Virus record (IMG/VR): IMGVR_UViG_2850756110_000011
Length of the DNA stretch: 38,644 bases
DNA from: a virus
Taxonomy: Duplodnaviria; Heunggongvirae; Uroviricota; Caudoviricetes
Direction: 5' to 3' (one strand)
How positions within the stretch are numbered: the first letter of the stretch is position 1; every line of letters begins with the position of its first letter. Position numbers and translations under genes: made by a program. The notes under the pieces were generated by a model. It had not been told where the DNA came from. It did not search any database and saw only the letters and a list, made by a program, of their open reading frames with translations. This document shows, in pieces, positions 17,928 to 38,514 of this stretch.

Positions 17928-18962
17928 TTAAGTAGCTAGTTTATAACTATCAAATTTAACAATGTTATCACTTACCAATTTATTTATTTCCATCATTCTT
18001 TTTTGTAACGGTATTAACTCGTTACGTACAAACACCAGGCTCGCCTTCTCCACATCCCCAAACCCCCCGACATTATTAGGCATAATCCCCATCATTTGCG
18101 GTGGCACACGATGCGCCGCCATCATGTCATCCCGGCTCACGTTCTTGATGTTCAGAAACTCATCCTTCGCCGCGACTTCTGACAACGGGATGATCTGAAG
18201 CCCGTCCTTTTTGCCGTTAGGCGAGTACATAAACAGATTGCGGAAGTTACCTGGTCCTTTGGCGCTTTTCATCGCATTGCGGAGGTTGTTCACATCCTCC
18301 TGGTTTTGCGCGGCATCGGTCATGTACATGATGAAGCCTGCATGACTGCCGTTAATGTAATACTATCGGCGGAACAGCGTGGCGGACTCGTTGAGCAGGG
18401 CTGACGGAATGGCAGAAAGGTAACCTGGCAGGCCGTAGATCTCTTGGTTGATGTCCGGTTCCATCAGATGAAAGATGCTTCCTTTCGTGAACTGATACGG
18501 CTGCGTGGTCATGCCGTATTGCACAAACCAGTAGGTATCCAGGTCTAATCCGCGTCGGGTGTATTTTGCCAGAGCAGGCTCAAGAGCGATGACCTCTCCG
18601 AACCGGTTTGTGCGTTTCTCCAGGTAAGCGTTACCAAATACCAGATAATCCTGCACAAAACGTGAAAAAGCCTGCTGGCTGAGCAGCGGGTGAGGGATGT
18701 AGGTACTGATCAGAATGTTGCATTTCACCGCAATTGGTGAACTGTGATGCACGGCGGCGCGGAAGGTGCGCGCCAGTCCGTCAAAACTCACTGGCGGCTC
18801 ATACCAGCGATCTGTCTGTACGCATTCCACATAGTCCAGTAGTTCACGGCGGTCCAGAACCGGAACGGGATCGCCGAAGCTGAATGCTTCGGCTGAAGTC
18901 TGGTTTTTATGCTGGGTCTGTTTCGTCGCCGCAGCGCGGTTCTTCTTACTCTTTCCCATCAA
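17928..18962 (-). pseudogene. P2 gpQ-like portal protein with an in-frame TAG stop (18363-18365) after codon 199
   Basis: Two ORF calls (18363-18962 and 17928-18329) are in the same frame: ...SATLFRR*YYINGSHAGFIMYMTDAAQNQ... Confidence 0.8.
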
Positions 18963-20725
18963 AAAATCTCCACAATATTGCTGGTATTGGCGGACTCGCC
19001 CTGCAGCGGTTCGTTAAACAGTGCGTGCATTGTTGCCCAGGCCAGATCGGCATGGCTGGCTTCTTCGCTGCGGCTGGCTTCATAGGTCGGGCGGTTGCCG
19101 CTGGCGGTGGTGGCGCGACGGATTGCCATGAATGACTGCGCAATGTCGGTGTGCCCGGCGTCAAACTCAAGACGGCGGTGGCTGATAATGTCGTAGGCCT
19201 TGAGTACCAGGGCGTTTTTAACGTTGGGGTTGTAGACAAACTCCCGGACGGCAGGAAAAAACGCTTTCACGTTCTCGTAAACCCCGTGACCAACGCCGGT
19301 TGAGTCGATGCCGATATAGGTCACGTTGTACTGTTCAGTCAGTTTTTTGATGGCGTAAGCCTGGGCGCGAAAGTCCATTCCGCGCCACTGGTGACGCTCA
19401 AGAATGCGGAACTTACCGCCTGGCACGGCTGGCGGTGCCACCACCACGCATCCGGCGCTGTCGCCGTTCTGCGTACCTTTTGCCGGGTCATAACCGATCC
19501 ACACTTCGCGCCAGCCAAACGGGCGCAGGGCCAGTGCATGAAAGTCGGTCCAGACTTCCCAGCTGTCCACCATGCACGCCTGCAATTCGCTGAGCGGGAA
19601 CACGGACGCGAGATCGTCCACGAACTCGCACATCAGCAGGTTCTGGTATTCGTCAGGGCTGTACTCCATGCGCAACTGGTCAAGGTCGAACAGGTTACAG
19701 GCGCCGCGCACCGCATCTTCCACGGTGACTATCTGGCGGTATTGCCCGTCTGCGCACAGCAGGCCGGGGGCCAGATTGCTGTGGGACAGGTCGATGTCCA
19801 CCTTGTCAGCTTTGTTGCGCCCACGGTTGAACAGCGCACCGGACCAGAACGGATAAGCACTGTGGGTCAGACTGGATGGTGTGGAAAAATAGGTCTGCCG
19901 CCATTTCTTGTGAATAGCCATACCAGAAGCCACTTTGCGTAGCTCCTGAAATTTCGGTATCCAGAAATATTCATCCAGATACAGGTTACCGTGATAACTC
20001 TGGGCAGTGCGGGCATTGGTGCCGAGGAAATACAGTGTGGCCCCGTTGGGAAGCACCATCGGATCGCCTTTCAGCTCCACCTCCACTTCTTTGGCAAAGT
20101 CGATGATGTACTGTTTGAAGACGTGGGCCTGTGCCTTACTGGCAGAAAGGAAAATCTGGTTACGTCCGGTAAGCAGGGCGTCAATCAGGGCTTCACGGGC
20201 AAAATAGAAGGTCGCGCCGATCTGGCGTGACTTCAGCAGGTTGCGGATGCGGTTGGTTTTTCCGGCTTCCCACCAGTGGCGCTGGTAGTTGAACATGGAG
20301 GAATGGAAATTTTTTTCCAGCTTCTCAATCTGGTCATCGGTGAAAACATTCTTTTCAGGCTGACGGCGTGGGCCTTTGTTGCGGTTGGCGACGTTAGGGT
20401 TTAAGTCGGCTTCGTTGCCGCCATTGTTAAACTTGCCGATCCGCGCGTGGCGCTCAGACTGGCGCGCCAGCAGGTCAATATCTTTGAAATCTTTCCCTTC
20501 TTTGTGCTCCTTCATGATGAGCTGGCAGTAGCGTGCGGCGGTGGTGAGCTGCATCTGATCCAGAGGCCCATAGTCACCCCACTTGTCGCGTTTTTTCCAG
20601 CTGTAAACGGTTGCAACTTTCTCGCCCAGCATTTCAGCAATGCGGGCTACGCGGTATCCCTGAAAGTACAGCAGCATGGCCTGCCGACGGGGATCGAGAT
20701 CTGCGGGTGTCAGTGTGGTGTTCAT
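18959..20725 (-). CDS. terminase large (ATPase) subunit, P2 gpP-like
   Basis: 588 aa, P2 gpP-sized; adjacent to and overlapping the portal gene start. Confidence 0.9.
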   Translation of the reverse strand: MNTTLTPADLDPRRQAMLLYFQGYRVARIAEMLGEKVATVYSWKKRDKWGDYGPLDQMQLTTAARYCQLIMKEHKEGKDFKDIDLLARQSERHARIGKFNNGGNEADLNPNVANRNKGPRRQPEKNVFTDDQIEKLEKNFHSSMFNYQRHWWEAGKTNRIRNLLKSRQIGATFYFAREALIDALLTGRNQIFLSASKAQAHVFKQYIIDFAKEVEVELKGDPMVLPNGATLYFLGTNARTAQSYHGNLYLDEYFWIPKFQELRKVASGMAIHKKWRQTYFSTPSSLTHSAYPFWSGALFNRGRNKADKVDIDLSHSNLAPGLLCADGQYRQIVTVEDAVRGACNLFDLDQLRMEYSPDEYQNLLMCEFVDDLASVFPLSELQACMVDSWEVWTDFHALALRPFGWREVWIGYDPAKGTQNGDSAGCVVVAPPAVPGGKFRILERHQWRGMDFRAQAYAIKKLTEQYNVTYIGIDSTGVGHGVYENVKAFFPAVREFVYNPNVKNALVLKAYDIISHRRLEFDAGHTDIAQSFMAIRRATTASGNRPTYEASRSEEASHADLAWATMHALFNEPLQGESANTSNIVEIF

Positions 20726-20771
20726 GGCACAAACCTACAGCCTTGAATGAAGGCTTTCCCCGCCTGCGGTT

Positions 20772-20789
20772 TGTGTGGTTGTCGGTACA
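20772..20789. promoter_or_regulatory. P2-type late promoter activator site (TGT-N12-ACA dyad) in the divergent P/O intergenic region
   Basis: TGTGTGGTTGTCGGTACA read directly; Ogr-family activators recognise TGT-N12-ACA upstream of P2 late promoters (established knowledge). Confidence 0.45.
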
Positions 20790-20867
20790 AATACCGCGCA
20801 TTGTTTCACTGCCCCTATCACCGCAACCATAAGGCTCCAGTAAGTTTTTTCTAACGGAGCACGGCTC

Positions 20868-21701
20868 ATGACAGTGAAAGCAAAGCGTTTTCGCATCGGG
20901 GTGGAAGGTGCCACCACCGACGGACGCGAAATCCAGCGTGAATGGCTGGAACAGATGGCAGCCAGCTATAACCCGGCGGTGTATACCGCGCTGATTAACC
21001 TTGAGCACATCAAGTCTTATCTGCCGGACAGCACCTTTAACCGCTACGGCAAGGTGACGGCGCTGTTTGCTGAAGAAATCACGGAAGGTCCGCTGGCAGG
21101 CAAGATGGCGCTGTATGCTGACGTTGAGCCAACGGAGTCCCTGGTGGAACTGGTGAAAAAAGGCCAGAAATTATTCACCTCTATGGAAGTCAGCCCGAAG
21201 TTCGCTGATACGGGCAAAGCCTACCTGGTCGGCCTGGCTGCCACTGATGACCCTGCCAGTCTGGGCACTGAAATGCTGACATTCAGCGCCAGTGCAGCCC
21301 ATAACCCGCTGGCAAACCGCAAGCAGAATCCCGCCAATCTCTTTACCGCCGCAGAGGAAACGGTGATCGAACTGGAAGAAGTCCAGGACGACAAACCGTC
21401 CCTGTTTGCCCGCGTCACGGCGCTGTTTACCAAAAAAGAGCAGTCCGATGACGCCCGGTTCTCTGATGTGCATAAGGCCGTGGAGCTGGTCGCCACTGAG
21501 CAGCAGAACCTGAGCGCACGCACCGAAAAATCCCTGTCTGAGCAGGAAGAACGCCTGTCTGAGCTGGAGACTGCCCTGCAGGCACAGCAAACCGCCTTTA
21601 ACGAACTGGTGGACAAGCTGAGTCATGAAGACAGCCGCCAGGACTACCGCCAGCGTGCAACAGGCGGTAACGCCCCCGCTGACACTCTGACCAATTGCTG
21701 A
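20868..21701 (+). CDS. capsid scaffolding protein, P2 gpO-like
   Basis: 277 aa; position and size between terminase and major capsid. Confidence 0.85.
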   Translation: MTVKAKRFRIGVEGATTDGREIQREWLEQMAASYNPAVYTALINLEHIKSYLPDSTFNRYGKVTALFAEEITEGPLAGKMALYADVEPTESLVELVKKGQKLFTSMEVSPKFADTGKAYLVGLAATDDPASLGTEMLTFSASAAHNPLANRKQNPANLFTAAEETVIELEEVQDDKPSLFARVTALFTKKEQSDDARFSDVHKAVELVATEQQNLSARTEKSLSEQEERLSELETALQAQQTAFNELVDKLSHEDSRQDYRQRATGGNAPADTLTNC

Positions 21702-21717
21702 TGGAGCACAAAACCTG

Positions 21718-22776
21718 ATGAAGAAGAATACCCGCTTTGCTTTTAACGCTTACCTGCAGCAACTGGCGCGTCTGAACGGTGTGGCAGTTGAAGAACTGTC
21801 CAGCAAGTTCACCGTAGAGCCGTCCGTGCAGCAGACGCTGGAAGACCAGATCCAGCAGTCCGCCGCTTTCCTGACTCTGATTAACGTCACGCCAGTGACT
21901 GAGCAGTCCGGTCAGCTGCTGGGGTTGGGAGTTGGCAGCACCATTGCCGGAACCACTGATACCACTGCGAAAGAGCGTGAACCTGTCGATCCGACGCTGA
22001 TGGTCGATGTGGAATATAAATGCGAGCAGACCAACTTTGACACGGTGCTGACCTACGCGAAGCTGGACCTGTGGGCGAAGTTTCAGGATTTTCAGGTGCG
22101 TATCCGTGACGCCATCGTGAAACGTCAGGCACTGGACCGCATCATGATCGGCTTTAATGGCGTGAAGCGTGCGAAAACCTCCAACCGTAGCGAAAACCCG
22201 CTGCTGCAGGATGTGAATAAAGGCTGGCTGCAGAAAATCCGTGAGGATGCACCGGATCACGTCATGGGCAGCACCACCACGGGCGGTGAAACCACACCGG
22301 GCGCAGTGAAAGTCGGGAAAGGTGGCGAATATGCCAACCTGGACGCCGTGGTGATGGATGCCGTCAATGAGCTTATCGACGTGGTCTACCAGGACGATGA
22401 CGATCTGGTGGTGATTTGCGGTCGTGAACTGCTGTCTGACAAGTATTTCCCGCTGGTCAACAAAGAGCAGGAAAACAGTGAAAAACTGGCTGCCGATATG
22501 ATCATCAGTCAGAAACGCATGGGTGGCCTGCAGGCCGTGCGTGCGCCGTTCTTCCCGCCGAATGCGCTGCTGATCACCCGTCTGGATAACCTGTCCATCT
22601 ACTGGCAGGAAGACACCCGCCGCCGTTCAGTTATCGACAACCCGAAACGTGACCGGATTGAAAACTTTGAATCCGTTAACGAAGCCTATGTGGTTGAGGA
22701 CTACCGCTGCGCCGCACTGGTGGAAAACATCCAGATTAGTGATTTCAGCGCCGCCGCAGCCGAAACCGGAGCGTAA
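21718..22776 (+). CDS. major capsid protein, P2 gpN-like
   Basis: 352 aa, P2 gpN-sized, following scaffold. Confidence 0.9.
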   Translation: MKKNTRFAFNAYLQQLARLNGVAVEELSSKFTVEPSVQQTLEDQIQQSAAFLTLINVTPVTEQSGQLLGLGVGSTIAGTTDTTAKEREPVDPTLMVDVEYKCEQTNFDTVLTYAKLDLWAKFQDFQVRIRDAIVKRQALDRIMIGFNGVKRAKTSNRSENPLLQDVNKGWLQKIREDAPDHVMGSTTTGGETTPGAVKVGKGGEYANLDAVVMDAVNELIDVVYQDDDDLVVICGRELLSDKYFPLVNKEQENSEKLAADMIISQKRMGGLQAVRAPFFPPNALLITRLDNLSIYWQEDTRRRSVIDNPKRDRIENFESVNEAYVVEDYRCAALVENIQISDFSAAAAETGA

Positions 22777-22779
22777 TCC

Positions 22780-23430
22780 ATGAGCCTGAGTCCCGCACGG
22801 CAGCATCGCCTGCGCGTTCAGGCTGAACAGGCCGCCCGTGAGGGTGGCAGTGTTCGCCACGCATCGGGCTATGACCTGATGCTGCTGCAACTGGCGGAAG
22901 ACCGCCGCCGTCTCAAGGGCGTTCAGTCCACGGTCAAAAAAGCGGAAATCAAAGTGGAGCTGCTGCCGAAGTACGCCGCCTGGGCGGAGGGTGTCCTGGC
23001 TGCCGGAGGCGCTCAACAGGATGACGTGCTGATGTACGTGATGTTGTGGCGCATTGATGCCGGAGATTATGCCGGGGCGCTGGAGATCTGGCGTCATGCC
23101 CTGCGTCATGGATGGGTGATGCCGCTGGGCAACCGCAACGTGCAGACCGTGCTGACAGAGGAAATGGCAGATGCAGCGCAGAGCGCAATGCTTGCCGCCA
23201 CCGGCTTTGATGCCGATCTGTTGCTGCAGACGCTGGAGCTGACAGACGGTCTGGATATGCCGGACCAGTCACGGGCACGTCTGCATAAAGCGATTGGCGC
23301 GGTCCTGAGTGAAAGCAATCCGGCTTCCGCCCTTAATCATCTCAACCATGCGTTACAGCTCGATCCCCGCTGTGGCGTGAAAAAAGACAAACAGCAGCTG
23401 GAGCGCAGACTGCGCAATGACAGCCGCTGA
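22780..23430 (+). CDS. terminase small (endonuclease) subunit, P2 gpM-like
   Basis: 216 aa; ...DDVLMYVMLWRIDAGDYAGALEIWRHALRHGW... resembles my recollection of P2 gpM. Confidence 0.8.
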   Translation: MSLSPARQHRLRVQAEQAAREGGSVRHASGYDLMLLQLAEDRRRLKGVQSTVKKAEIKVELLPKYAAWAEGVLAAGGAQQDDVLMYVMLWRIDAGDYAGALEIWRHALRHGWVMPLGNRNVQTVLTEEMADAAQSAMLAATGFDADLLLQTLELTDGLDMPDQSRARLHKAIGAVLSESNPASALNHLNHALQLDPRCGVKKDKQQLERRLRNDSR

Positions 23431-23525: not shown

Positions 23526-23972
23526 ATGAAGTTTGTTGCGCCAGAACAGGCACCGGAACAGGCGGAAATCATTAGAAATACGCCGTTCTGGCCTGATGTG
23601 GACCTGTCGGAGTTTCGCAGTGTCATGCGCACTGACGGCACGGTGACGCAGCCGCGTTTAAAGTAGGTTGCACTGTCGGCAATTTCGGAGGTTAACGCAG
23701 AGCTGTATGAATTTCGCAGACGCCAGCAGATGCTGGGGTATGCGTCGGAACAGCTGGACGGGAAAAGTGAGCGCATTCAGCACTATTTCAACGCGGTTTA
23801 CTGCTGGGCTCGCGCCATGCTCAACGAACGTTTCCAGGACTATGACGCCACGGCATCCGGTGCGAAGCGGGGCGAAGAACTGGCGGAAGCAAGCGGTGAT
23901 TTGTGGCGTGACGCCCGCTGGGCCATCAGCCGGGTGCAGGACGCGCCGCACTGCACAGTGGAGCTTATCTGA
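23526..23972 (+). pseudogene. head completion/stabilisation protein, P2 gpL-like, with an in-frame TAG stop (23664-23666) after codon 46
   Basis: MKFVAPEQ...TQPRLK*VALSAISEVNAELYEFRRRQQMLGYASEQ...; both ORF calls share one frame; RBS CAGGAGAAAGCAGCATG. Confidence 0.7.
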
Positions 23973-24175
23973 TGAAAGTGCGTGCGCATCAGTATGACAC
24001 GGTGGACGCGCTTTGCTGGCGTCATTACGGGCGCACGCAGGGTGTCACGGAGCAGGTACTGAAGGCAAATCCGGGGCTTGCCGAATACGGCCCCTTTGTA
24101 CCTCACGGGCTGCAGGTGGAGCTGCCGGACATTCCGACCACCACCACCGTGCAGACCGTCCAGCTATGGGACTGA
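23972..24175 (+). CDS. tail protein, P2 gpX-like
   Basis: 67 aa; position between L and lysis genes. Confidence 0.7.
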   Translation: MKVRAHQYDTVDALCWRHYGRTQGVTEQVLKANPGLAEYGPFVPHGLQVELPDIPTTTTVQTVQLWD

Positions 24176-24178
24176 ATT

Positions 24179-24394
24179 ATGACGCTTGAGCGAATCAGCG
24201 CCTTTATCACGTATTGCATCGCCGTCGTGCTGGCCTGGCTGGGCGATTTGTCCATCAAGGATGCCTCAACGCTGGGCGGCCTGATGATTGGTGTGCTGAT
24301 GCTGGCTATCAACTGGTACTACAAACACAAAGCCTACCAGCTTCTGCGCGACGGGCAGATCTCGCGGGAGGACTATGAATCCATCAATCGTTAA
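24179..24394 (+). CDS. holin (small two-TMD membrane protein)
   Basis: 71 aa with two hydrophobic segments and charged C-terminus; immediately upstream of and overlapping the endolysin. Confidence 0.65.
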   Translation: MTLERISAFITYCIAVVLAWLGDLSIKDASTLGGLMIGVLMLAINWYYKHKAYQLLRDGQISREDYESINR

Positions 24395-24887
24395 ACGCTG
24401 CCTTGTCGGGGCCGTGCTGGCTATTGCTGCCACGCTGCCGGGTTTTCAGCAGCTTCACACCTCCGTGGAGGGACTGAAACTGATTGCCGATTACGAAGGT
24501 TGTCGTCTGCAGCCGTATCAGTGCAGCGCGGGTGTCTGGACCGACGGTATTGGTAATACGTCGGGCGTCATTCCCGGCAAAACCATTACGGAGCGACAGG
24601 CAGCAGAAGGGCTGATCTCCAACGTGCTGCGTGTGGAGCGGGCGCTTGAAAGGTGTGTGAAGCAACAGCCGCCGCAGAAGGTGTATGACGCTGCGGTGTC
24701 GTTTGCCTTCAACGTGGGTACGGGCAATGCCTGCAGTTCCACGCTGGTGAAATTGCTCAATCAGCGGCGCTGGGCGGATGCGTGCCGACAGTTGCCGCGC
24801 TGGGTTTATGTGAAAGGTGTTTTTAATCAGGGGCTGGATAACCGCCGTGCGCGGGAGATGGCCTGGTGTTTACAGGGAGCAAACTGA
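24375..24887 (+). CDS. endolysin, lysozyme-type with N-terminal signal-anchor (SAR-like) segment
   Basis: N-terminal hydrophobic LVGAVLAIAATLPGF, then ...GLKLIADYEGCRLQPYQCSAGVWTDGIGNT... lysozyme-like core. Confidence 0.85.
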   Translation: MNPSIVKRCLVGAVLAIAATLPGFQQLHTSVEGLKLIADYEGCRLQPYQCSAGVWTDGIGNTSGVIPGKTITERQAAEGLISNVLRVERALERCVKQQPPQKVYDAAVSFAFNVGTGNACSSTLVKLLNQRRWADACRQLPRWVYVKGVFNQGLDNRRAREMAWCLQGAN

Positions 24888-24888
24888 A

Positions 24889-25266
24889 ATGAAAAAGAAA
24901 TTAATCAGCGGGCTGTTTCTGATGTTATGGATGGCGCTGTTAATCGCAGCAATAGTGTATCCGCAGGGGATTTTTCCGGTACTGGCAGCGTCCGGCGTTT
25001 GGGTAGCCTGTTTACTGACATGGGCGGTAATTCCGGTAGCACTGGCTTCGTTAATTAAGAATGGCCCGCTCTGGCAGGAGTTGAGGGCATCTTTACTGAA
25101 GACAATTACCCGAAAAGAAAACGTATTTATCAGCTGGGTGATACGATTGCTGATTGTCGTCAGTCTCGCCTGGACGGGGTGGGCCATTACCCTGGTCTTT
25201 TATCTGCTGACCGTTATTGCCTTCTGGATCACCCGTAATCAGATGGCGCAACAGGTAGCCGCATGA
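24889..25266 (+). CDS. lysis-associated membrane protein (LysA-like, about 4 TMD)
   Basis: MKKKLISGLFLMLWMALLIAAIVYPQGIFPVLAASGVWVACLLTW...; internal start of the 149-aa ORF call. Confidence 0.55.
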   Translation: MKKKLISGLFLMLWMALLIAAIVYPQGIFPVLAASGVWVACLLTWAVIPVALASLIKNGPLWQELRASLLKTITRKENVFISWVIRLLIVVSLAWTGWAITLVFYLLTVIAFWITRNQMAQQVAA

Positions 25267-25691
25267 ACCGGTTGCTGCTGGTTGTGCTGGCGTTATTATT
25301 GGCGGCGCTGGGCTGGCAGACGTGGCGGCTGGCTGATGCCAGCCAGACCATCAGCACGCAGGCAGACGAGCTGCAGAGCAAAAGCCAGGCACTGGCAAAG
25401 AGCAACAGCCAGCTTATCAGCCTGTCCATTCTGACTGAAACCAATAACCGGGAGCAGGCGCGGCTCTATGCCGAAGCAGAACAGACCAGTGTACTGCTGA
25501 GACAACGACAACGCCGGATTGAGGAACTGAAACGTGAGAACGAGGATTTACGTCGCTGGGCTGATACTCCTTTGCCTGCTGACATTATCCGGCTGCGGGA
25601 ACGTCCGGCACTCACCGGAGGTGCAGCTTACCGTCAGTGGTTGTCCGCGAGTGACGCCGTGTCGGCTGGAGCAGGCAGCGCCGCGCACTAA
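25263..25691 (+). CDS. i-spanin (Rz/LysB-like)
   Basis: N-terminal TMD then coiled-coil rich sequence; overlaps preceding gene stop. Confidence 0.65.
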   Translation: MNRLLLVVLALLLAALGWQTWRLADASQTISTQADELQSKSQALAKSNSQLISLSILTETNNREQARLYAEAEQTSVLLRQRQRRIEELKRENEDLRRWADTPLPADIIRLRERPALTGGAAYRQWLSASDAVSAGAGSAAH

Positions 25692-25824
25692 CGGTGATCT
25701 GAATGCGTTGCTGGATGAAACGGAGGCCGCCTGGGCGGTCTGTGCAGACAAAGTGGACATGATTATTGCGTGTCAGGAGCGAAATAGTGAACAAACCACA
25801 ATCCCTGCGCCACGCCCTCAATAA
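25534..25824 (+). CDS. o-spanin (Rz1/LysC-like lipoprotein) in an alternative frame overlapping the i-spanin
   Basis: Signal peptide with lipobox LTLSGC, proline-rich; embedded/overlapping arrangement typical of spanin pairs. Confidence 0.5.
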   Translation: MRTRIYVAGLILLCLLTLSGCGNVRHSPEVQLTVSGCPRVTPCRLEQAAPRTNGDLNALLDETEAAWAVCADKVDMIIACQERNSEQTTIPAPRPQ

Positions 25825-26218
25825 AGCAGTGCCTTATGTCCGTAATAACCCGGACAAACTGCATCTGTTTGTGGATAACGGTTCGCTGGTTGCCTCCGGG
25901 GCTAGCTCCATGTCATGGGAGTACCGCTACACCCTGAACGTGGTGATTGAAGATTTCAGCGGCGACCAGAATCTGCTGATGGCCCCGGTTTTGCTGTGGC
26001 TGCGGGATAACCAGCCCGATGCGATCAATAACCCGGCGTTACGGGAAAAGCTATTCACCTTTGAGGTGGATATTCTGCGCAACGATGTCTGTGATATCAG
26101 CCTTAACCTGCAACTGACGGAGCGTGTGCTGGTCAGCACTGACGGCAGTGTGTCGAACGTTGAAGCGGTAGCGGAACCTGATGAACCTGAAGAAATGTGG
26201 ACGGTGAAACGTGGCTGA
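25787..26218 (+). CDS. tail completion protein, P2 gpR-like (GTG start)
   Basis: VNKPQSLRHALNKAVPYVRNNPDKLHLFVDNGS... with RBS AGGAG 7 nt upstream. Confidence 0.7.
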   Translation: MNKPQSLRHALNKAVPYVRNNPDKLHLFVDNGSLVASGASSMSWEYRYTLNVVIEDFSGDQNLLMAPVLLWLRDNQPDAINNPALREKLFTFEVDILRNDVCDISLNLQLTERVLVSTDGSVSNVEAVAEPDEPEEMWTVKRG

Positions 26219-26612
26219 ATTGCAGAAGGTGGACGACTGGCTGAGTGCATTATTGGCGAATCTGGAGCCAGCCGCAAGAAGCCGCATGATGCGCCAGCTG
26301 GCGCAGGAACTGCGCCGGACACAGCAGCAGAACATCAGGATGCAGCGCAATCCAGATGGCAGCAGTTATGAGCCGCGCAGGGTAACAGCACGCAGCAAAA
26401 AGGGGCGCATCAAACGTCAGATGTTTACAAAGCTGCGCACCACAAAATACCTGAAAACTGCAGCCAGCGCCGATTCTGCCAGCGTACAGTTTGAAGGTAG
26501 GGTGCAGCGCATTGCCCGTATTCACCATTACGGCTTGAGTGATCGCGTCAGTCGAAAAGGTATTTATACCATCTATGCGAAAAGGCAGTTATTAGGTTTT
26601 AATGTCCGGTAA
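26211..26612 (+). pseudogene. tail completion protein, P2 gpS-like, 3' end truncated by IS1 copy 2
   Basis: ORF runs into the IS1 left end at 26608 and terminates on IS1-encoded codons. Confidence 0.7.
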
Positions 26613-26662
26613 TGCTGCCAACTTACTGATTTAGTGTATGATGGTGATTTTAAGGTGCTTGC

Positions 26663-26938
26663 GTGGCTTCCATTTCCATCAGATGTCCTTCCTGCTCCGC
26701 TATTGAAGGCGTGGTGCGTAACGGCAAAAGCACTGCCGGACATCAGCGCTATCTCTGCTCTCATTGCCGTAAAACATGGCAACTACAGTTCACTTACACC
26801 GCCTCTCAGCCCGGTACGCACCAGAAAATCATTGATATGGCCATGAATGGCGTCGGATGTCGCGCCAGTGCACGCATTATGGGCGTTGGCCTCAACACGG
26901 TTTTACGTCACTTAAAAAACTCAGGCCGCAGTCGGTAA
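26663..26938 (+). CDS. insA: IS1 InsA
   Basis: [40 protein letters not shown]... Confidence 0.9.
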
Positions 26939-27360
26939 CCTCGCGCATACAACCGGGCAGTGATGTGATTGTCTGCGCTGAAATGGACGAACAGTGGGGC
27001 TACGTCGGTGCTAAATCACGTCAGCGCTGGCTGTTTTACGCGTATGACAGGATACGGAGGACGGTTGTGGCGCACGTCTTCGGTGAACGCACTCTGGCCA
27101 CACTGGAGCGTCTTCTGAGCCTGCTGTCGGCCTTTGAGGTCGTGGTATGGATGACGGATGGCTGGCCGCTGTATGAATCACGCCTGAAGGGAAAGCTGCA
27201 CGTTATCAGCAAGCGTTACACTCAGCGCATTGAGCGACATAATCTGAATCTGAGACAACATCTGGCAAGGCTGGGACGGAAGTCACTGTCGTTCTCAAAA
27301 TCGGTGGAGCTGCATGACAAGGTCATCGGGCATTATCTGAACATAAAACACTATCAGTAA
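26937..27360 (+). CDS. insB: IS1 InsB' frame (expressed as InsAB' by -1 frameshift)
   Basis: ...[28 protein letters not shown]...[40 protein letters not shown]. Confidence 0.8.
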
Positions 27361-27370
27361 GTTGGCAGCA

Positions 27371-27907
27371 TTACCATGCAGCCCTCACAATATAGTTAAA
27401 AGCGACATTTCGTGGGCGTGTTTCATTCGCACCTGCAGGTTTAGTCGTTGCCGCAACAACACCACCCTCTGTAATAGCCGGGTTGGGAATTGGGTAATTA
27501 TCGAAGTCAATGGCCGGAGACAGGGGCGTGATTTGTTTTAAAATCGTGGTGCCTGTAAAACTTTCCAGAGTCTGGTCGTTAGTTCGTGAAGTCCAGATTC
27601 CCCAATAGTGGTTATGACTGACAATCGCACCGTCCTGAAGCGTTAATAATCCCCTTCCGTTATCCACTCCACGTCCGTCATCCCAGCCACGAATAAACTC
27701 ACCGCGTAAATCAGGCAATTTATTTGTCGGGTAAGCCTTTGCCAGTTCCGGGTATTCTTCAGCAGAAAAAGCCGCACCATTGCATTTCAGCCAGCCTGTC
27801 GGCGGAGTGGCTGAAGGCCACGGAACAGGCACACCAACAGGTAATGCAGAGCCTTCTCCCAAACCAACGTTTAAGAAAATGCAGAGATAATGGCTAACTG
27901 GCATCAT
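27371..27907 (-). CDS. phage tail-fibre variable C-terminal segment with tail-collar domain; orphan alternative segment of an invertible tail-fibre locus (5' limit arbitrary)
   Basis: ...PVGVPVPWPSATPPTGWLKCNGAAFSAEEYPELAKAY...LPDLRGEFIRGWDDGRG...ETRPRNVAFNYIVRAAW; stop codon partly supplied by the IS1 end. Confidence 0.7.
   Translation of the reverse strand: MMPVSHYLCIFLNVGLGEGSALPVGVPVPWPSATPPTGWLKCNGAAFSAEEYPELAKAYPTNKLPDLRGEFIRGWDDGRGVDNGRGLLTLQDGAIVSHNHYWGIWTSRTNDQTLESFTGTTILKQITPLSPAIDFDNYPIPNPAITEGGVVAATTKPAGANETRPRNVAFNYIVRAAW
27854..27879. other. gix/hix-like recombination site for the adjacent invertase
   Basis: TTCTCCCAAACCAACGTTTAAGAAAA resembles my recollection of the 26-bp gix/hix sites (TTCCTGTAAACCGAGGTTTTGGATAA). 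Confidence 0.5.
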
Positions 27908-27934
27908 CCCCGGTTTTTATTCAGGGGATTGATC

Positions 27935-28501
27935 ATGCTTATTGGCTATGTACGCGTGTCAACAAATGACCAGAACACCGATTTGCAACGTAATGCACTG
28001 AACTGCGCGGGATGTGAGCGGATTTTTGAGGATAAAATCAGTGGCACTAAGCCCGACAGACCGGGGCTTAAAAAACTGCTCAGGACACTATCGGCAGGAG
28101 ACACGCTGGTTGTCTGGAAGCTGGACAGACTGGGACGCAGTATGCGGCATCTTGTTACGCTGATAGAAGAGTTGCGCCAGCGTGGTGTGAATTTCCGAAG
28201 CCTGACTGACAGTATTGATACCAGTACCCCAATGGGCCGTTTCTTTTTTCACGTCATGGGGGCTCTGGCTGAAATGGAACGTGAACTGATAGTTGAACGT
28301 ACCAGAGCAGGGCTGGCTGCAGCTCGTGCCAAAGGCAGAGTAGGTGGACTCCGTCCTAAGTTGACCACCGAACAGTGGGCACAGATTGGACGTTTACTCG
28401 AGGCCGGAGAATCAAGACAGCGTATTGCACTGATTTTTGATGTGGGCGTTTCTACCATTTATAGAAAATTTCCGGCGAATGAGAGCAATGAATCGCCCTG
28501 A
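27935..28501 (+). CDS. serine recombinase, DNA invertase of the Gin/Hin/Pin/Cin family
   Basis: MLIGYVRVSTNDQNTDLQRNAL...RLGRSMRHLVTLIEEL...GVSTIYRKF; catalytic Ser in the YVRVST motif, C-terminal HTH. Confidence 0.9.
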   Translation: MLIGYVRVSTNDQNTDLQRNALNCAGCERIFEDKISGTKPDRPGLKKLLRTLSAGDTLVVWKLDRLGRSMRHLVTLIEELRQRGVNFRSLTDSIDTSTPMGRFFFHVMGALAEMERELIVERTRAGLAAARAKGRVGGLRPKLTTEQWAQIGRLLEAGESRQRIALIFDVGVSTIYRKFPANESNESP

Positions 28502-30698: not shown

Positions 30699-30832
30699 CG
30701 GTTGACGATCTGGTGGCTGATATCGCCACCATCTTTCACTGGCCGCCATCCGTTACTGACGTTATGCCGCTGACCGAAGTGCTGGAATGGCGGGATAAAG
30801 CGATTCAGAGAAGCGGGGCCAGCCATGAGTGA
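30396..30832 (+). CDS. tail assembly chaperone extended form (gpE+E'-like) by programmed -1 frameshift at TTTTTTG (30653-30659)
   Basis: -1 frame after the heptamer is open for 58 codons (FFVEEVGACRFTDSLTVDDLVADIATIFHWPP...WRDKAIQRSGASHE) and ends overlapping the tape-measure start. Confidence 0.6.
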
Positions 30833-33800
30833 CAATAACCTGCGTCTGCAGGTGATTCTTAATGCGGTTGACAAACTCACCCGCCCATTTCGATCCGCGC
30901 AGGCCAGTTCAAGAGAACTGGCTGCTGCTGTCAAAAAATCCCGCGATGCAATAAAGCAGCTTGATCAGGCCGGGAGCAGTCTGGACAGCTTCCGAAAGCT
31001 GCAGGCAGAAAATCAGAAATTAGGCGACAGGCTGAACTATGCCCGCCAGCGTGCAAATTTGCTCAGTCAGGAACTGGGAGCGATGGGGCCGCCTTCGCAA
31101 CGTCAGGTTGTTGCTCTGGGCCGTCAACGGCTGGCTGTTCAGCGCCTGGAAGAACGCCAGAAAAAGCTGCAGCAGCAGACGGCGCTTGTGCGTGCAGAAC
31201 TTTATCGTGCTGGTATTTCAGCTAATGATGGCGCCAGTGCGACGGCCCGCATTACCCGTGAAACGATGCGTTATAACAGGCAGCTTTCTGAGCAGGAAGC
31301 GAGGTTACGACGTGTCGGGGAGCAACAGCGAAAAATGCACGCCGCCCGGGGGCTTACGCCAGGCGTCTTGAGGTAAGGGATCGTATTGCAGGTGCCGGAG
31401 CCACCACCACGGCTGCAGGGCTGGCAATGGGCGCACCAGTGATGGCGGCAGTAAAAAGCTATACCAGCATGGAAGATGCCATGAAAGGTGTGGCAAAGCA
31501 GGTCAATGGTCTGCGTGACGATAATGGCAACCGCACTGCGCGTTTTTACGAAATGCAGGGTGCCATCAAGGCTGCCAGCGAACAGTTGCCGATGGAAAAC
31601 GGTGCTGTGGACTTCGCCGCACTGGTTGAAGGTGGTGCGCGCATGAACGTCGCAAACCCTGACGACAGCTGGGAAGACCAGAAACGTGACCTGCTGGCCT
31701 TCGCCAGCACGGCGGCAAAGGCGGCAACAGCCTTTGAACTGCCAGCGGATGAACTGTCAGAAAGTCTGGGGAAAATCGCCCAGCTCTACAAAATCCCTAC
31801 CCGCAATATTGAGCAGCTCGGTGATGCGCTGAACTATCTGGATGATAACGCCATGTCGAAAGGGGCGGACATCATTGATGTCATGCAACGCCTGGGCGGT
31901 GTGGCTGACCGTCTGGATTATCGTAAAGCGGCGGCGCTGGGTTCCACCTTCCTGACACTCGGCGCTGCGCCTGAGGTTGCAGCCAGTGCAGCAAACGCGA
32001 TGGTGCGTGAATTGTCCATTGCCACCATGCAAAGCAAGAGTTTCTTTGAAGGGATGAATCTGCTGAAACTCAATCCAGAAGTGATTGAAAAGCAGATGAC
32101 GAAGGATGCGATGGGAACTATCCAGCGGGTGCTGGAGAAGGTGAATGCGCTGCCACAGGATAAGCGCCTGTCTGCCATGACCATGTTGTTTGGTAAAGAG
32201 TTTGGCGATGACGCAGCGAAACTGGCAAACAACCTGCCGGAACTTCAGCGCCAGTTAAAACTGACTGCGGGCAATGATGCGCTCGGTTCCATGCAGAAAG
32301 AATCCGACATCAACAAGGATTCACTTTCTGCTCAGTGGTTGCTGGTCAAAACCGGAGCACAGAACACCTTCAGCAGCCTGGGGGAAACGCTGCGCCAGCC
32401 GCTGATGGATATTCTGTACACGGTGAAAAGCGTCACGGGGGCGTTGCGTCGCTGGGTGGAAGCTAACCCGGAACTGACGGGCACTCTGATGAAAGTAGCC
32501 GCTGTGGTAGCTGCCGTTACCGTGGGCCTCGGCACCTTAGAGGTGGCGCTGGCTGCAGTGCTGGGGCCGCTGGCAGTCATCCGTCTGGGATTCTCTGTGC
32601 TGGGTATCAAAACGTTACCTTCCGTTACGGCAGCAGTAACCCGAACCAGCAACGCGTTGTCCTGGCTGGCTGGCGCACCACTGGCACTGCTGCGACGCGG
32701 GCTTGCTTCATCGGGCAACGCTGCAGGTTTACTTACTGCGCCGTTGTCGTCTTTGCGCCGCACGGCATCACTGACGGGAAATGTCCTGAAAACTGTAGCA
32801 GGTGCGCCGGTTGCACTTTTGCGGGTCTGGATTATCCGGTTTACGTGCGGTTGCTGTGATGTTTATGAATCCACTGGCGGTACTACGCGGCGGACTGGCT
32901 GCCACAGGCACGGTGCTGCGTATGCTCGCATCCGGTCCACTGGCGATGCTGCGCGTTGCCCTGTATGCCGTCTCTGGTCTGTTAGGTGCTCTGCTCAGTC
33001 TGATAGGTCTTGTGGTTACTGCACTGGCGGGTGTGGCGCTGGTTGTCTGGAAATACTGGCAGCCCATCACCACATTTCTCGGTGGCGTGGTGGAAGGATT
33101 CAAAGCGGCGGCAGGTCCTGTCAGTGCCGCGTTCGAACCGCTTAAGCCTGTGTTCCAGTGGATTGGCGACAAAGTACAGGCGCTGTGGGGCTGGTTTACT
33201 GATCTGCTGACGCCCGTTAAGTCGACCTCTGCCGAACTGCAGAGTGCAGCGGCAATGGGGCGACGATTCGGGGAGGCTCTGGCGGAAGGGCTGAATATGG
33301 TCATGCATCCGCTGGACTCCCTGAAATCCGGCGTTTCCTGGTTGCTGGAGAAACTTGGCATTGTCAGTAAAGAGGCCGCAAAGGCGAAACTGCCGGAAAG
33401 CGTGACGCGTCAGCAACCTGCGACGGTGAATGCAGACGGTAAAGTGATGATGCCATCGGGTGGTTTTCCGTCATGGGGATATGGCTTTGCGGGGATGTAT
33501 GACAGCGGCGGGTATATCCCGCGCGGGCAGTTTGGCATCGTCGGTGAAAACGGGCCGGAAATTGTTAACGGCCCGGCAAATGTGACCAGCCGGAGAAATA
33601 CAGCTGCACTGGCTGCCGTTGTTGCCGGAATGATGGGTGTTGCTGCTACGCCAGCAGAGCTTCCACCGTTGCACCCTTTGGCACTTCCCGCGAAAGGCGG
33701 TGAAGCGATGGTGAGTCGTGCAGCCACTGTGCCGCCCGTTCAACGGATTGAGGCACCGATGCAGATCATCATTCAAACGCAGCCAGGACAAAGTGCGCAG

Positions 33801-33902
33801 GATATTGCGCGGAAGGTGGCCCGCCAGCTTGATGAACGTGAACGCAGGCTGAAGGCAAAAGCCAGGAGTAACTACAGCGATCAGGGGGGATACGACGCAT
33901 GA
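30825..33902 (+). pseudogene. tail tape measure protein (gpT-like), split into three ORFs by a -1 frameshift near 31330 and a +1 frameshift near 32820
   Basis: ORFs 30825-31376, 31427-33145 and 32802-33902 are each tape-measure-like (coiled coil, then GAPLALLR-type repeats); frames differ by -1 then +1. Confidence 0.8.
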
Positions 33903-37980: not shown

Positions 37981-38514
37981 GTGAAACATAAACAACGTTG
38001 GGCAGGGGCAATCTGCTGTTTTGTCCTCTTCATTGTGGTGTGCCTTTTTCTGGCGACGTACATGAAAGGCGCTTTTCGGGCTGCCGGGCATCCTGAAATC
38101 GGCTTGCTGTTTTTCATTCTTCCTGGAGCAGTTGCCAGTTTCTTTTCACAGCGTAGAGAAGTCCTGAAACCTCTATTTGGCGCAATGCTGGCGGCACCCT
38201 GTTCAATGCTCATTATGCGGCTGTTTTTTTCACCGACGCGCTCATTCTGGCAAGAGCTGGCATGGTTACTAAGCGCGGTGTTCTGGTGTGCGCTGGGGCA
38301 CTGTGTTTCTTATTTATCAGTAGTTTGTTTAAACCACAGCACAGAAAAAATCAGTAAAGCCCTCAACGCGAGGGCTTGTCAGACGATCAGGCGTCCAGAT
38401 TTTCTTTCACCCATGCAGCAAAATCGGTATAGCCGCCGATATGTTGCTGATCGACAAAAATCTGCGGCACGGTTTCTACGGGTTTACCTGCCTTTTGTGG
38501 TAGATCTTCTTTAG
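37981..38514 (+). CDS. ybjM: inner membrane protein YbjM homologue; ORF as read is 177 codons and runs antisense into grxA, suggesting a frameshift relative to the roughly 125-aa form I recall
   Basis: MKHKQRWAGAICCFVLFIVVCLFLATYMKGAFRAAGHPEIGLLFF...; an alternative frame ends ...FISSLFKPQHRKNQ* at 38355-38357 before a stem-loop. Confidence 0.6.
   Translation: MKHKQRWAGAICCFVLFIVVCLFLATYMKGAFRAAGHPEIGLLFFILPGAVASFFSQRREVLKPLFGAMLAAPCSMLIMRLFFSPTRSFWQELAWLLSAVFWCALGHCVSYLSVVCLNHSTEKISKALNARACQTIRRPDFLSPMQQNRYSRRYVADRQKSAARFLRVYLPFVVDLL

Follow-up and report, generated by a model that had tools for sequence, protein, structure and literature searches.

Amber mutants of gene L are classical laboratory mutants of bacteriophage P2. 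In these mutants, a premature TAG codon abolishes the adaptor between the filled head and the tail. [quoted passage not shown] This protein is added after DNA packaging and before tail attachment (PMC7552001). In this study, we analyzed a stretch of DNA of 38,644 nucleotides (IMG/VR virus record IMGVR_UViG_2850756110_000011; the whole stretch is called the window), which contains a P2-like prophage whose gene L is interrupted by an in-frame TAG codon. The window gene L belongs to the same family as P2 gene L (E=7e-43, whole profile) and occupies the same place between the terminase M and tail X genes. As in the P2 laboratory mutants, the premature TAG would remove the adaptor. Unlike those mutants, the window allele is natural, is fixed in an Elveevirus-type chromosomal remnant (approximately 95% DNA identity to phage Cartapus) and is not a conditional-lethal allele propagated on a suppressor host. 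Moreover, the window gene L, unlike the P2 ambers, also carries an 18-bp deletion.

Some in-frame stop codons in bacteria are conserved under dN/dS values below 1, and readthrough has been proposed for many of them (Belinky et al. 2021, PMC7918605). The window gene shares with these conserved stops, and with TAG-recoded phages, an in-frame stop within an otherwise open and recognizable gene. In contrast to them, the window stop is confined to one clone, the few changes downstream give no sign of purifying selection, the window contains no suppressor tRNA gene, and the residues replaced by TAG are Lys and Gln. Cryptic prophages of Shigella, which decay by the action of insertion sequences, have more in common with the window prophage: the loss of the integrase, repressor and baseplate modules, insertions of IS1, IS66, IS110 and IS3, nonsense and frameshift lesions, vertical inheritance and a neutral ratio of non-synonymous to synonymous changes (N:S). 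Nothing material differs between the two, and the window is a textbook instance of this decay; the additional point is that the order of the lesions can be read from sister lineages.

Gene L is one gene split by an amber codon

In the preliminary description of the window, the TAG codon was reported as the only interruption of a head-completion gene, and it was proposed to check whether the gene is one ORF in relatives. Of 5,426 complete E. coli genomes, that of UPEC-245U (NZ_CP049845.1) contains the nearest intact relative, a prophage with 99.6-99.8% identity. The features of gene L are as follows.

23526..23972, + strand: gene L (head completion / head-to-tail adaptor, PF05926), now an apparent pseudogene; a single Phage_GPL domain spans the stop
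23664..23666, + strand: amber codon, Gln47 (CAG) > TAG, C>T at 23664; CAG in UPEC-245U and Cartapus, Q in 14/14 full-length homologues
23745..23746, + strand: breakpoint of an in-frame 18-bp deletion, which costs six residues (SLAEVP/LAEVPA); 2-bp CG microhomology

The gene L frame (149 codons), whose translation begins with MKFVAPEQ, contains a single internal TAG at codon 47, ahead of the terminal TGA. When Gln was placed at the stop, the read-through protein matched PF05926 (Phage_GPL) with 146.4 bits (cutoff 27) over positions 1-139 of the 139 positions in the profile. The 46-aa N-terminal piece corresponds to profile positions 1-31, and the 80-aa C-terminal piece, which is the ATG-initiated ORF at 23730-23972, corresponds to positions 65-139. 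Because both halves fall within one Pfam domain, the locus is one gene split by a stop codon and not two small genes. The relatives compared likewise carry a single gene. In UPEC-245U, the orthologue is a 154-aa "head completion/stabilization protein" flanked by the genes for the terminase endonuclease subunit and for tail protein X, and in phage Cartapus (Peduoviridae, Elveevirus) gene L is also a single ORF with CAG at codon 47. The gene order terminase M - L - tail X is common to Cartapus, UPEC-245U and all Shigella loci examined. A megablast search matched the region in 989 E. coli records, and L was annotated as one gene in all matches listed. Base-by-base comparison with UPEC-245U and Cartapus gave CAG as the ancestral state of codon 47, from which the window TAG differs by C>T. 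The in-frame TAG in the head-completion gene was thus confirmed, both by translation and by the CAG codon in relatives.

The TAG is indeed the only interruption of the frame, but it is not the only lesion of gene L, because the 18-bp in-frame deletion lies downstream of it. This deletion was missed in the preliminary description. The residues that it removes are near-invariant: the sequence is LAEVPA in 13 of the 14 homologues and LAEVSA in the remaining one. A functional gpL is expected to be encoded by an uninterrupted ORF, and the window gene has the stop at codon 47 plus the six-residue deletion. Since the match to the family profile and the position in the operon are kept but the ORF is interrupted, the window gene L appears to be a pseudogene of the PF05926 family and not a functional member. 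In public records, the two halves are listed as separate "capsid completion" proteins of 46 and 80 aa. Gene L of this locus should be annotated as a pseudogene, and the element is best regarded as a remnant that cannot be induced; the significance beyond annotation is small.

The lesions of gene L are identical in fourteen Shigella assemblies

The exact 80-aa L fragment was indexed in 317 blocks of an assembly collection, and ten of these places were read (L007-L016). In all ten, L is split into 46 and 80 aa, the portal protein is split into 198 and 133 aa, and an IS1 element directly follows a 133-aa tail protein S. Nucleotide comparison of these ten places with the window showed no difference at 23664, at 18365 (the portal stop) or at the junction of the 18-bp deletion. 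Together with four further loci (L018, L022, L024 and L027), which were read in the course of the portal analysis described below, the TAG, the 18-bp deletion and the IS1 junction are identical in 14/14 window-type Shigella assemblies. These comprise complete genomes, draft assemblies and Logan assemblies of the runs ERR5982242 and ERR6005886. Exact L fragments are present on 286 contigs (80-aa piece) and 300 contigs (46-aa piece), and the organisms named are Shigella boydii and Shigella dysenteriae (including strain CDC 74-1112); these names were taken from the annotations of protein-cluster members. The window's variant of the 133-aa C-terminal portal piece is recorded only from Shigella dysenteriae. 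The window therefore most probably comes from S. dysenteriae, and this origin also accounts for the lack of an exact match among the complete E. coli genomes. An exact 41-mer of the TAG allele had no match in a one-genome-per-species collection, in which Shigella is represented by other genomes. The independent assemblies, including those from Illumina runs, all agree on the TAG.

A stop at codon 47 is absent from the E. coli prophages, Cartapus, the 14/14 full-length homologues and the Sb227-type Shigella loci. The 18-bp deletion accompanies the L amber in 14/14 window-type loci and is absent from the Sb227-type loci, which encode a 154-aa L.

The portal amber precedes the L amber

A second amber codon is present in the portal gene, as the preliminary description had noted.

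17928..18959, - strand: portal gene Q, pseudogene (198-aa and 133-aa pieces); the intact orthologue in UPEC-245U has 343 aa
18363..18365, - strand: portal amber, Lys199 (AAG) > TAG; A>T transversion on the coding strand; present in all 20 Shigella loci read

This companion amber is real and is the sole internal stop of its gene (18365-18363 on the - strand, within 17928-18959). The 198-aa N-terminal portal fragment was found in 1,377 index blocks and on at least 1000 contigs, with names that include Shigella flexneri and "n=5 Tax=Shigella". Ten places with this fragment were read. Four are of the window type (L018, L022, L024 and L027), and six are of the Sb227 type (L019, L020, L021, L023, L025 and L026). 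L019 is CP000036.1, which we take to be the genome of S. boydii Sb227. The six Sb227-type loci possess the portal amber, yet they have CAG at codon 47, a 154-aa L and a 147-aa S. Furthermore, gpA has its full length of 804 aa in L019, L020, L023 and L026, the four Sb227-type loci where it was called. The IS1 element in the Sb227-type loci lies approximately 70 bp further downstream than in the window, which possibly reflects an IS1-adjacent deletion that started from a shared IS1 copy.

The lesions are therefore nested: the portal amber is found in 20/20 loci, the L amber in a subset of 14, and further lesions are strain-specific. Because the Sb227-type loci have the portal amber together with an intact L, the L amber is later and occurred in an already defective prophage. 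Later, the window sub-lineage acquired two lesions in L (the amber and the 18-bp deletion), the IS1 junction by which S is shortened, an IS66-family insertion in gpA and five terminase substitutions. Decay is ongoing; for example, independent extra nonsense mutations are present in the portal gene of L014 (GAG122>TAG) and in the terminase gene of L013 (TGG43>TGA). The two ambers of the window share no mechanism because they differ in mutation type (A>T versus C>T), in the amino acid replaced and in age. A common mutational cause was considered and rejected, because one amber arose by a C>T transition and the other by an A>T transversion, and the two lie on different branches. The order of the lesions, in which the portal amber is older than the L amber, the 18-bp deletion and the shifted IS1 junction, could provide lineage markers within the Shigella boydii/dysenteriae group.

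Lesions in the other parts of the prophage

The prophage extends from position 13530 rightwards and adjoins ybjL, at the rcdA/ybjL locus. The sequence to the left of 13530 is not homologous to the intact UPEC-245U prophage. The parts of the element outside the portal gene and gene L are as follows.

13530..14427, + strand: what is left of the 3' end of replication gene A; an IS66-family element interrupts the gene at 13530, where homology starts
18959..23430, terminase P on the - strand: terminase P, scaffold O, capsid N and terminase M; frames open, with several derived non-synonymous changes
23972..26218, + strand: X, holin, endolysin, LysA, LysB/LysC and R, downstream of L; all frames open
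26211..26607, + strand: tail gene S, with the last 47 bp lost at the IS1 junction; 133 aa versus 147 aa in UPEC-245U and Sb227-type loci
26608..27375, + strand: complete IS1 of 768 bp with both terminal inverted repeats; replaces approximately 4.6 kb (a DUF5677 cargo gene, V, W, J, I and most of H)
27376..27870, - strand: 3' part of tail-fibre gene H, inverted (inverted alignment, - strand Collar domain); an invertible segment in flipped orientation, adjoining a Gin/Cin-type invertase gene
30825..33902, + strand: tape-measure gene T with two 1-bp frameshifts, G6>G5 at 31348 and G2>G3 at 32823

The transposase of the IS66-family element is encoded at 11954-13492, and in L018 the 5' part of gpA is found beyond the IS66 element. 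The int, C repressor and dam genes are absent from the element. The sheath, tube, U, D and ogr genes are open, as are the genes so marked in the list.

The IS1-associated deletion of tail genes, which had been proposed from the window alone, is borne out by the comparison: the IS1 has both inverted repeats, and approximately 4.6 kb are missing between the 3' end of S and the interior of H. The two frameshifts reported for the tape-measure gene are both present in T, although one of them needs a reservation. G6>G5 at 31348 is absent from L007, L008, L009 and L013, and it may be a late change or an assembly error. L009, L011 and L013 lack G2>G3 at 32823; this second change is found in older draft assemblies as well and is probably real. 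The earlier view that the prophage is defective holds regardless of L. The element has lost int, the repressor gene, dam and the start of gpA (the 5' part), the deletion at IS1 took away V, W, J, I and most of H, and the portal gene and T, like L, are broken. As far as can be judged from its gene content, the element should be unable to excise, replicate or build virions.

Two observations on individual genes may be added. In terminase P (18959-20725, - strand), the changes on the branch of the window sub-lineage are D457Y, I139N, H41Y, the synonymous S267S and the unpolarised E82D, and G342A is also present in the Sb227-type loci; changes are more closely spaced in this gene than in the rest of the prophage, but its frame has stayed open. 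The 3' piece of H at 27376-27870 lies beside the invertase gene (27890-28456), and its two alignments overlap by 17 bp at 27854-27870. This overlap is likely the crossover site of the invertible segment. Because the retained piece of H is inverted, the Gin/Cin-type segment was in the flipped state when the IS1 deletion occurred, and it was frozen by that deletion.

Cargo cassette between the DinI-like gene and the portal gene

The preliminary description stated that the ORFs of a defence cassette remain intact.

15306..17820, + strand: AAA ATPase (549 aa) and HNH endonuclease (287 aa), intact; PADLOC PDC-M01 A/B (E=3e-55 and 1e-33), with weaker Septu PtuA matches

These ORFs are intact. The cassette sits between a DinI-like gene and the portal gene, and it is kept in nearly all Shigella carriers and in UPEC-245U. 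In its position and family matches, it is like the cargo hotspots of the P2 family that carry anti-phage systems (Septu-like ATPase and HNH; PDC-M01). Compared with those hotspots, the window cassette is a database candidate for defence and simply a neighbour of the L amber. The intactness is weak evidence of selection, because most of the other late genes are open too and the N:S values do not differ significantly. Between lineages, N:S was 1:4 for the cassette versus 18:8 for the late genes (Fisher p=0.06); within Shigella, it was 4:4 versus 34:19 (p=0.46). We considered the intact cassette as a sign of selection and rejected this idea because neither contrast was significant.

Substitutions on the window lineage are neutral-looking

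Differences between the window and UPEC-245U were polarised with Cartapus as an outgroup. In the phage coding sequence, the window lineage has 18 non-synonymous changes (including the two nonsense mutations) and 8 synonymous changes; this ratio of 2.25, which is based on small counts (26 coding substitutions) and has low power, compares with 2.42 expected without selection from the observed mutation spectrum. The substitutions on the window lineage are consistent with relaxed selection and are neutral-looking. The chance of a nonsense outcome is 4.7% per coding substitution, so that 1.2 nonsense mutations are expected from 26 substitutions and two were seen (P(>=2)=0.34).

The preliminary description had judged the fact that both stops are amber to be notable but not statistically strong, and the calculation agrees with this. 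TAG accounts for 52% of the possible nonsense outcomes, and the probability that both of two nonsense mutations are amber is 0.27, within chance. When the two extra nonsense events from other strains are included, there are three ambers and one opal, as expected. Two ambers are unremarkable because the CAG-rich coding sequence makes TAG the most common nonsense outcome, and two ambers in one prophage need no special explanation.

Origin of the amber codon in gene L

The L TAG is very probably a spontaneous C>T nonsense mutation that was fixed by drift in a vertically inherited and already dead P2-like prophage. In the proposed course of events, the C>T change (CAG Gln47 to TAG) would have arisen in an Elveevirus-type prophage (Peduoviridae) of the Shigella dysenteriae/boydii lineage. 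Translation of L would end after 46 residues, most of the helical adaptor and the portal-clip-binding C-terminal region would be lost, and no functional head-completion protein would be made. Because a 46-residue product is without almost all of the adaptor and the clip-binding region, we infer that the allele is null, with drift as the presumable cause of its fixation. A portal protein truncated at residue 198 would likewise be without its clip. The decay began with the portal amber, in a step common to the Sb227-type strains. In the window sub-lineage, L was then hit by the amber and by the 18-bp deletion, S was cut at the IS1 junction, IS66 inserted in gpA, and the terminase gene gained several non-synonymous changes. 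Within this sub-lineage, the tape-measure frameshifts, and in other strains further nonsense mutations, followed. In the data examined, we found no evidence that contradicts this explanation by neutral decay. The TAG in L is an ordinary and already annotated case of pseudogene decay in a Shigella cryptic prophage.

The amber in L might instead have been fixed for the benefit of the host, either by polarity in the late O-N-M-L-X-Y-K operon, which would lower the expression of holin, endolysin and spanin, or by halting wasteful particle assembly in a remnant that is retained for the defence cassette. Polar effects of amber mutations in the P2 late operons are classical, and the lysis genes directly 3' of L (23972-25691) are still open. 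The PDC-M01 cassette is intact in most strains, with one non-synonymous and four synonymous changes relative to UPEC-245U, and the remnant has persisted through the diversification of Shigella. However, portal function was already lost when the L amber occurred, and in the Sb227-type strains these lysis genes are retained beside an intact L; the L stop is therefore not needed to tolerate the remnant. With gpA disrupted, the activation of late genes is probably crippled in any case, the number and type of the nonsense mutations match the neutral expectation, and the contrast between the cassette and the late genes is not significant (p values above). We consider such adaptive inactivation improbable. 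There is also little likelihood that Rho-dependent polarity from the L amber damps the downstream lysis genes and that the allele was fixed since it makes a cassette-bearing remnant safe; if this were true, the locus would be a small case of stepwise domestication by nonsense polarity.

Other explanations concern the reading of the codon itself. If a host amber suppressor or natural readthrough allowed some decoding of TAG, L would be down-regulated and not dead. The frame 3' of the L TAG is open up to the native stop codon, and such decoding would accord with the general claim of conserved in-frame stops with dN/dS below 1 (PMC7918605). In the window, no tRNA gene was found, so that a suppressor tRNA borne by the element was ruled out, and the stop is confined to one Shigella sub-lineage. 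Downstream of the L stop, there are one synonymous change, one non-synonymous change and the 18-bp deletion, which removes six codons for invariant residues; the portal gene has two non-synonymous changes and indels 3' of its stop. The counts are small for both genes, and the changes 3' of both stops, mostly non-synonymous or indels, tend to speak against constraint. In addition, one amber took the place of Lys and the other that of Gln, and the partners that gpL needs (portal, baseplate and tail fibre) are destroyed. A suppressor encoded by the host would not rescue the prophage because the baseplate, the tail fibre, the integrase and an intact replication gene are missing. Readthrough of the type described in PMC7918605 does not appear to be supported in L, and functional readthrough or suppression is very unlikely. 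A sequencing or assembly error, with CAG as the true codon, is extremely unlikely. Some related complete assemblies (L012 and L014) do contain many single-base homopolymer indels, but the lesion in L is a substitution and not a homopolymer indel, 14 independent assemblies made with different technologies are identical, and exact fragments are present on about 290-300 contigs. Because the same lesions occur in 14/14 assemblies and the 80-aa fragment on 286 contigs, the L TAG can be regarded as real and not as a sequencing error.

The probability is practically negligible that the TAG reflects an alternative code (TAG = Gln, as in recoded phages) or a laboratory amber (am) allele, engineered or selected. 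The change CAG>TAG fits TAG = Gln, and none of the 19 intact genes that were checked uses TAG as a terminator. The usage of TAG terminators in E. coli is approximately 8%. With this usage, zero TAG among 19 terminators is expected approximately one time in five; the result could hint at avoidance of TAG, but it is not unusual. Against an alternative code, there are only two in-frame TAG codons in approximately 22 kb, they show no pattern of replacement of one amino acid, the window encodes no suppressor tRNA, and the host, an enterobacterium, uses the standard code. Recoding of TAG to Gln was ruled out because the portal amber replaces Lys and because the L stop is not conserved. A laboratory allele is hard to reconcile with a chromosomal remnant that is carried widely in natural clinical lineages.

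Other features of the window

In the host gene ybjM (37981-38514), there is a 1-bp deletion (G5>G4 at 38295) relative to UPEC-245U, which changes the ORF from 125 to 177 aa. This is either a host pseudogene or a homopolymer error. A nest of insertion sequences occupies 3680-13530. It contains IS66-family tnpC genes at 4563-6155 and 11954-13492, IS110-family transposase genes at 6448-7575 (- strand) and 9651-10826 (+ strand), an IS3-family rve ORF at 7777-8595 and a partial IS1 at 8920-9568. Positions 1-3400 of the window are a fragment of an unrelated lambdoid/Rac-like prophage. The ORFs in this fragment encode a YdaT-toxin-family protein (548-970, - strand), an HTH_3 repressor-like protein (1258-1665) and a protein with a Rha/Ash domain (2458-3282).
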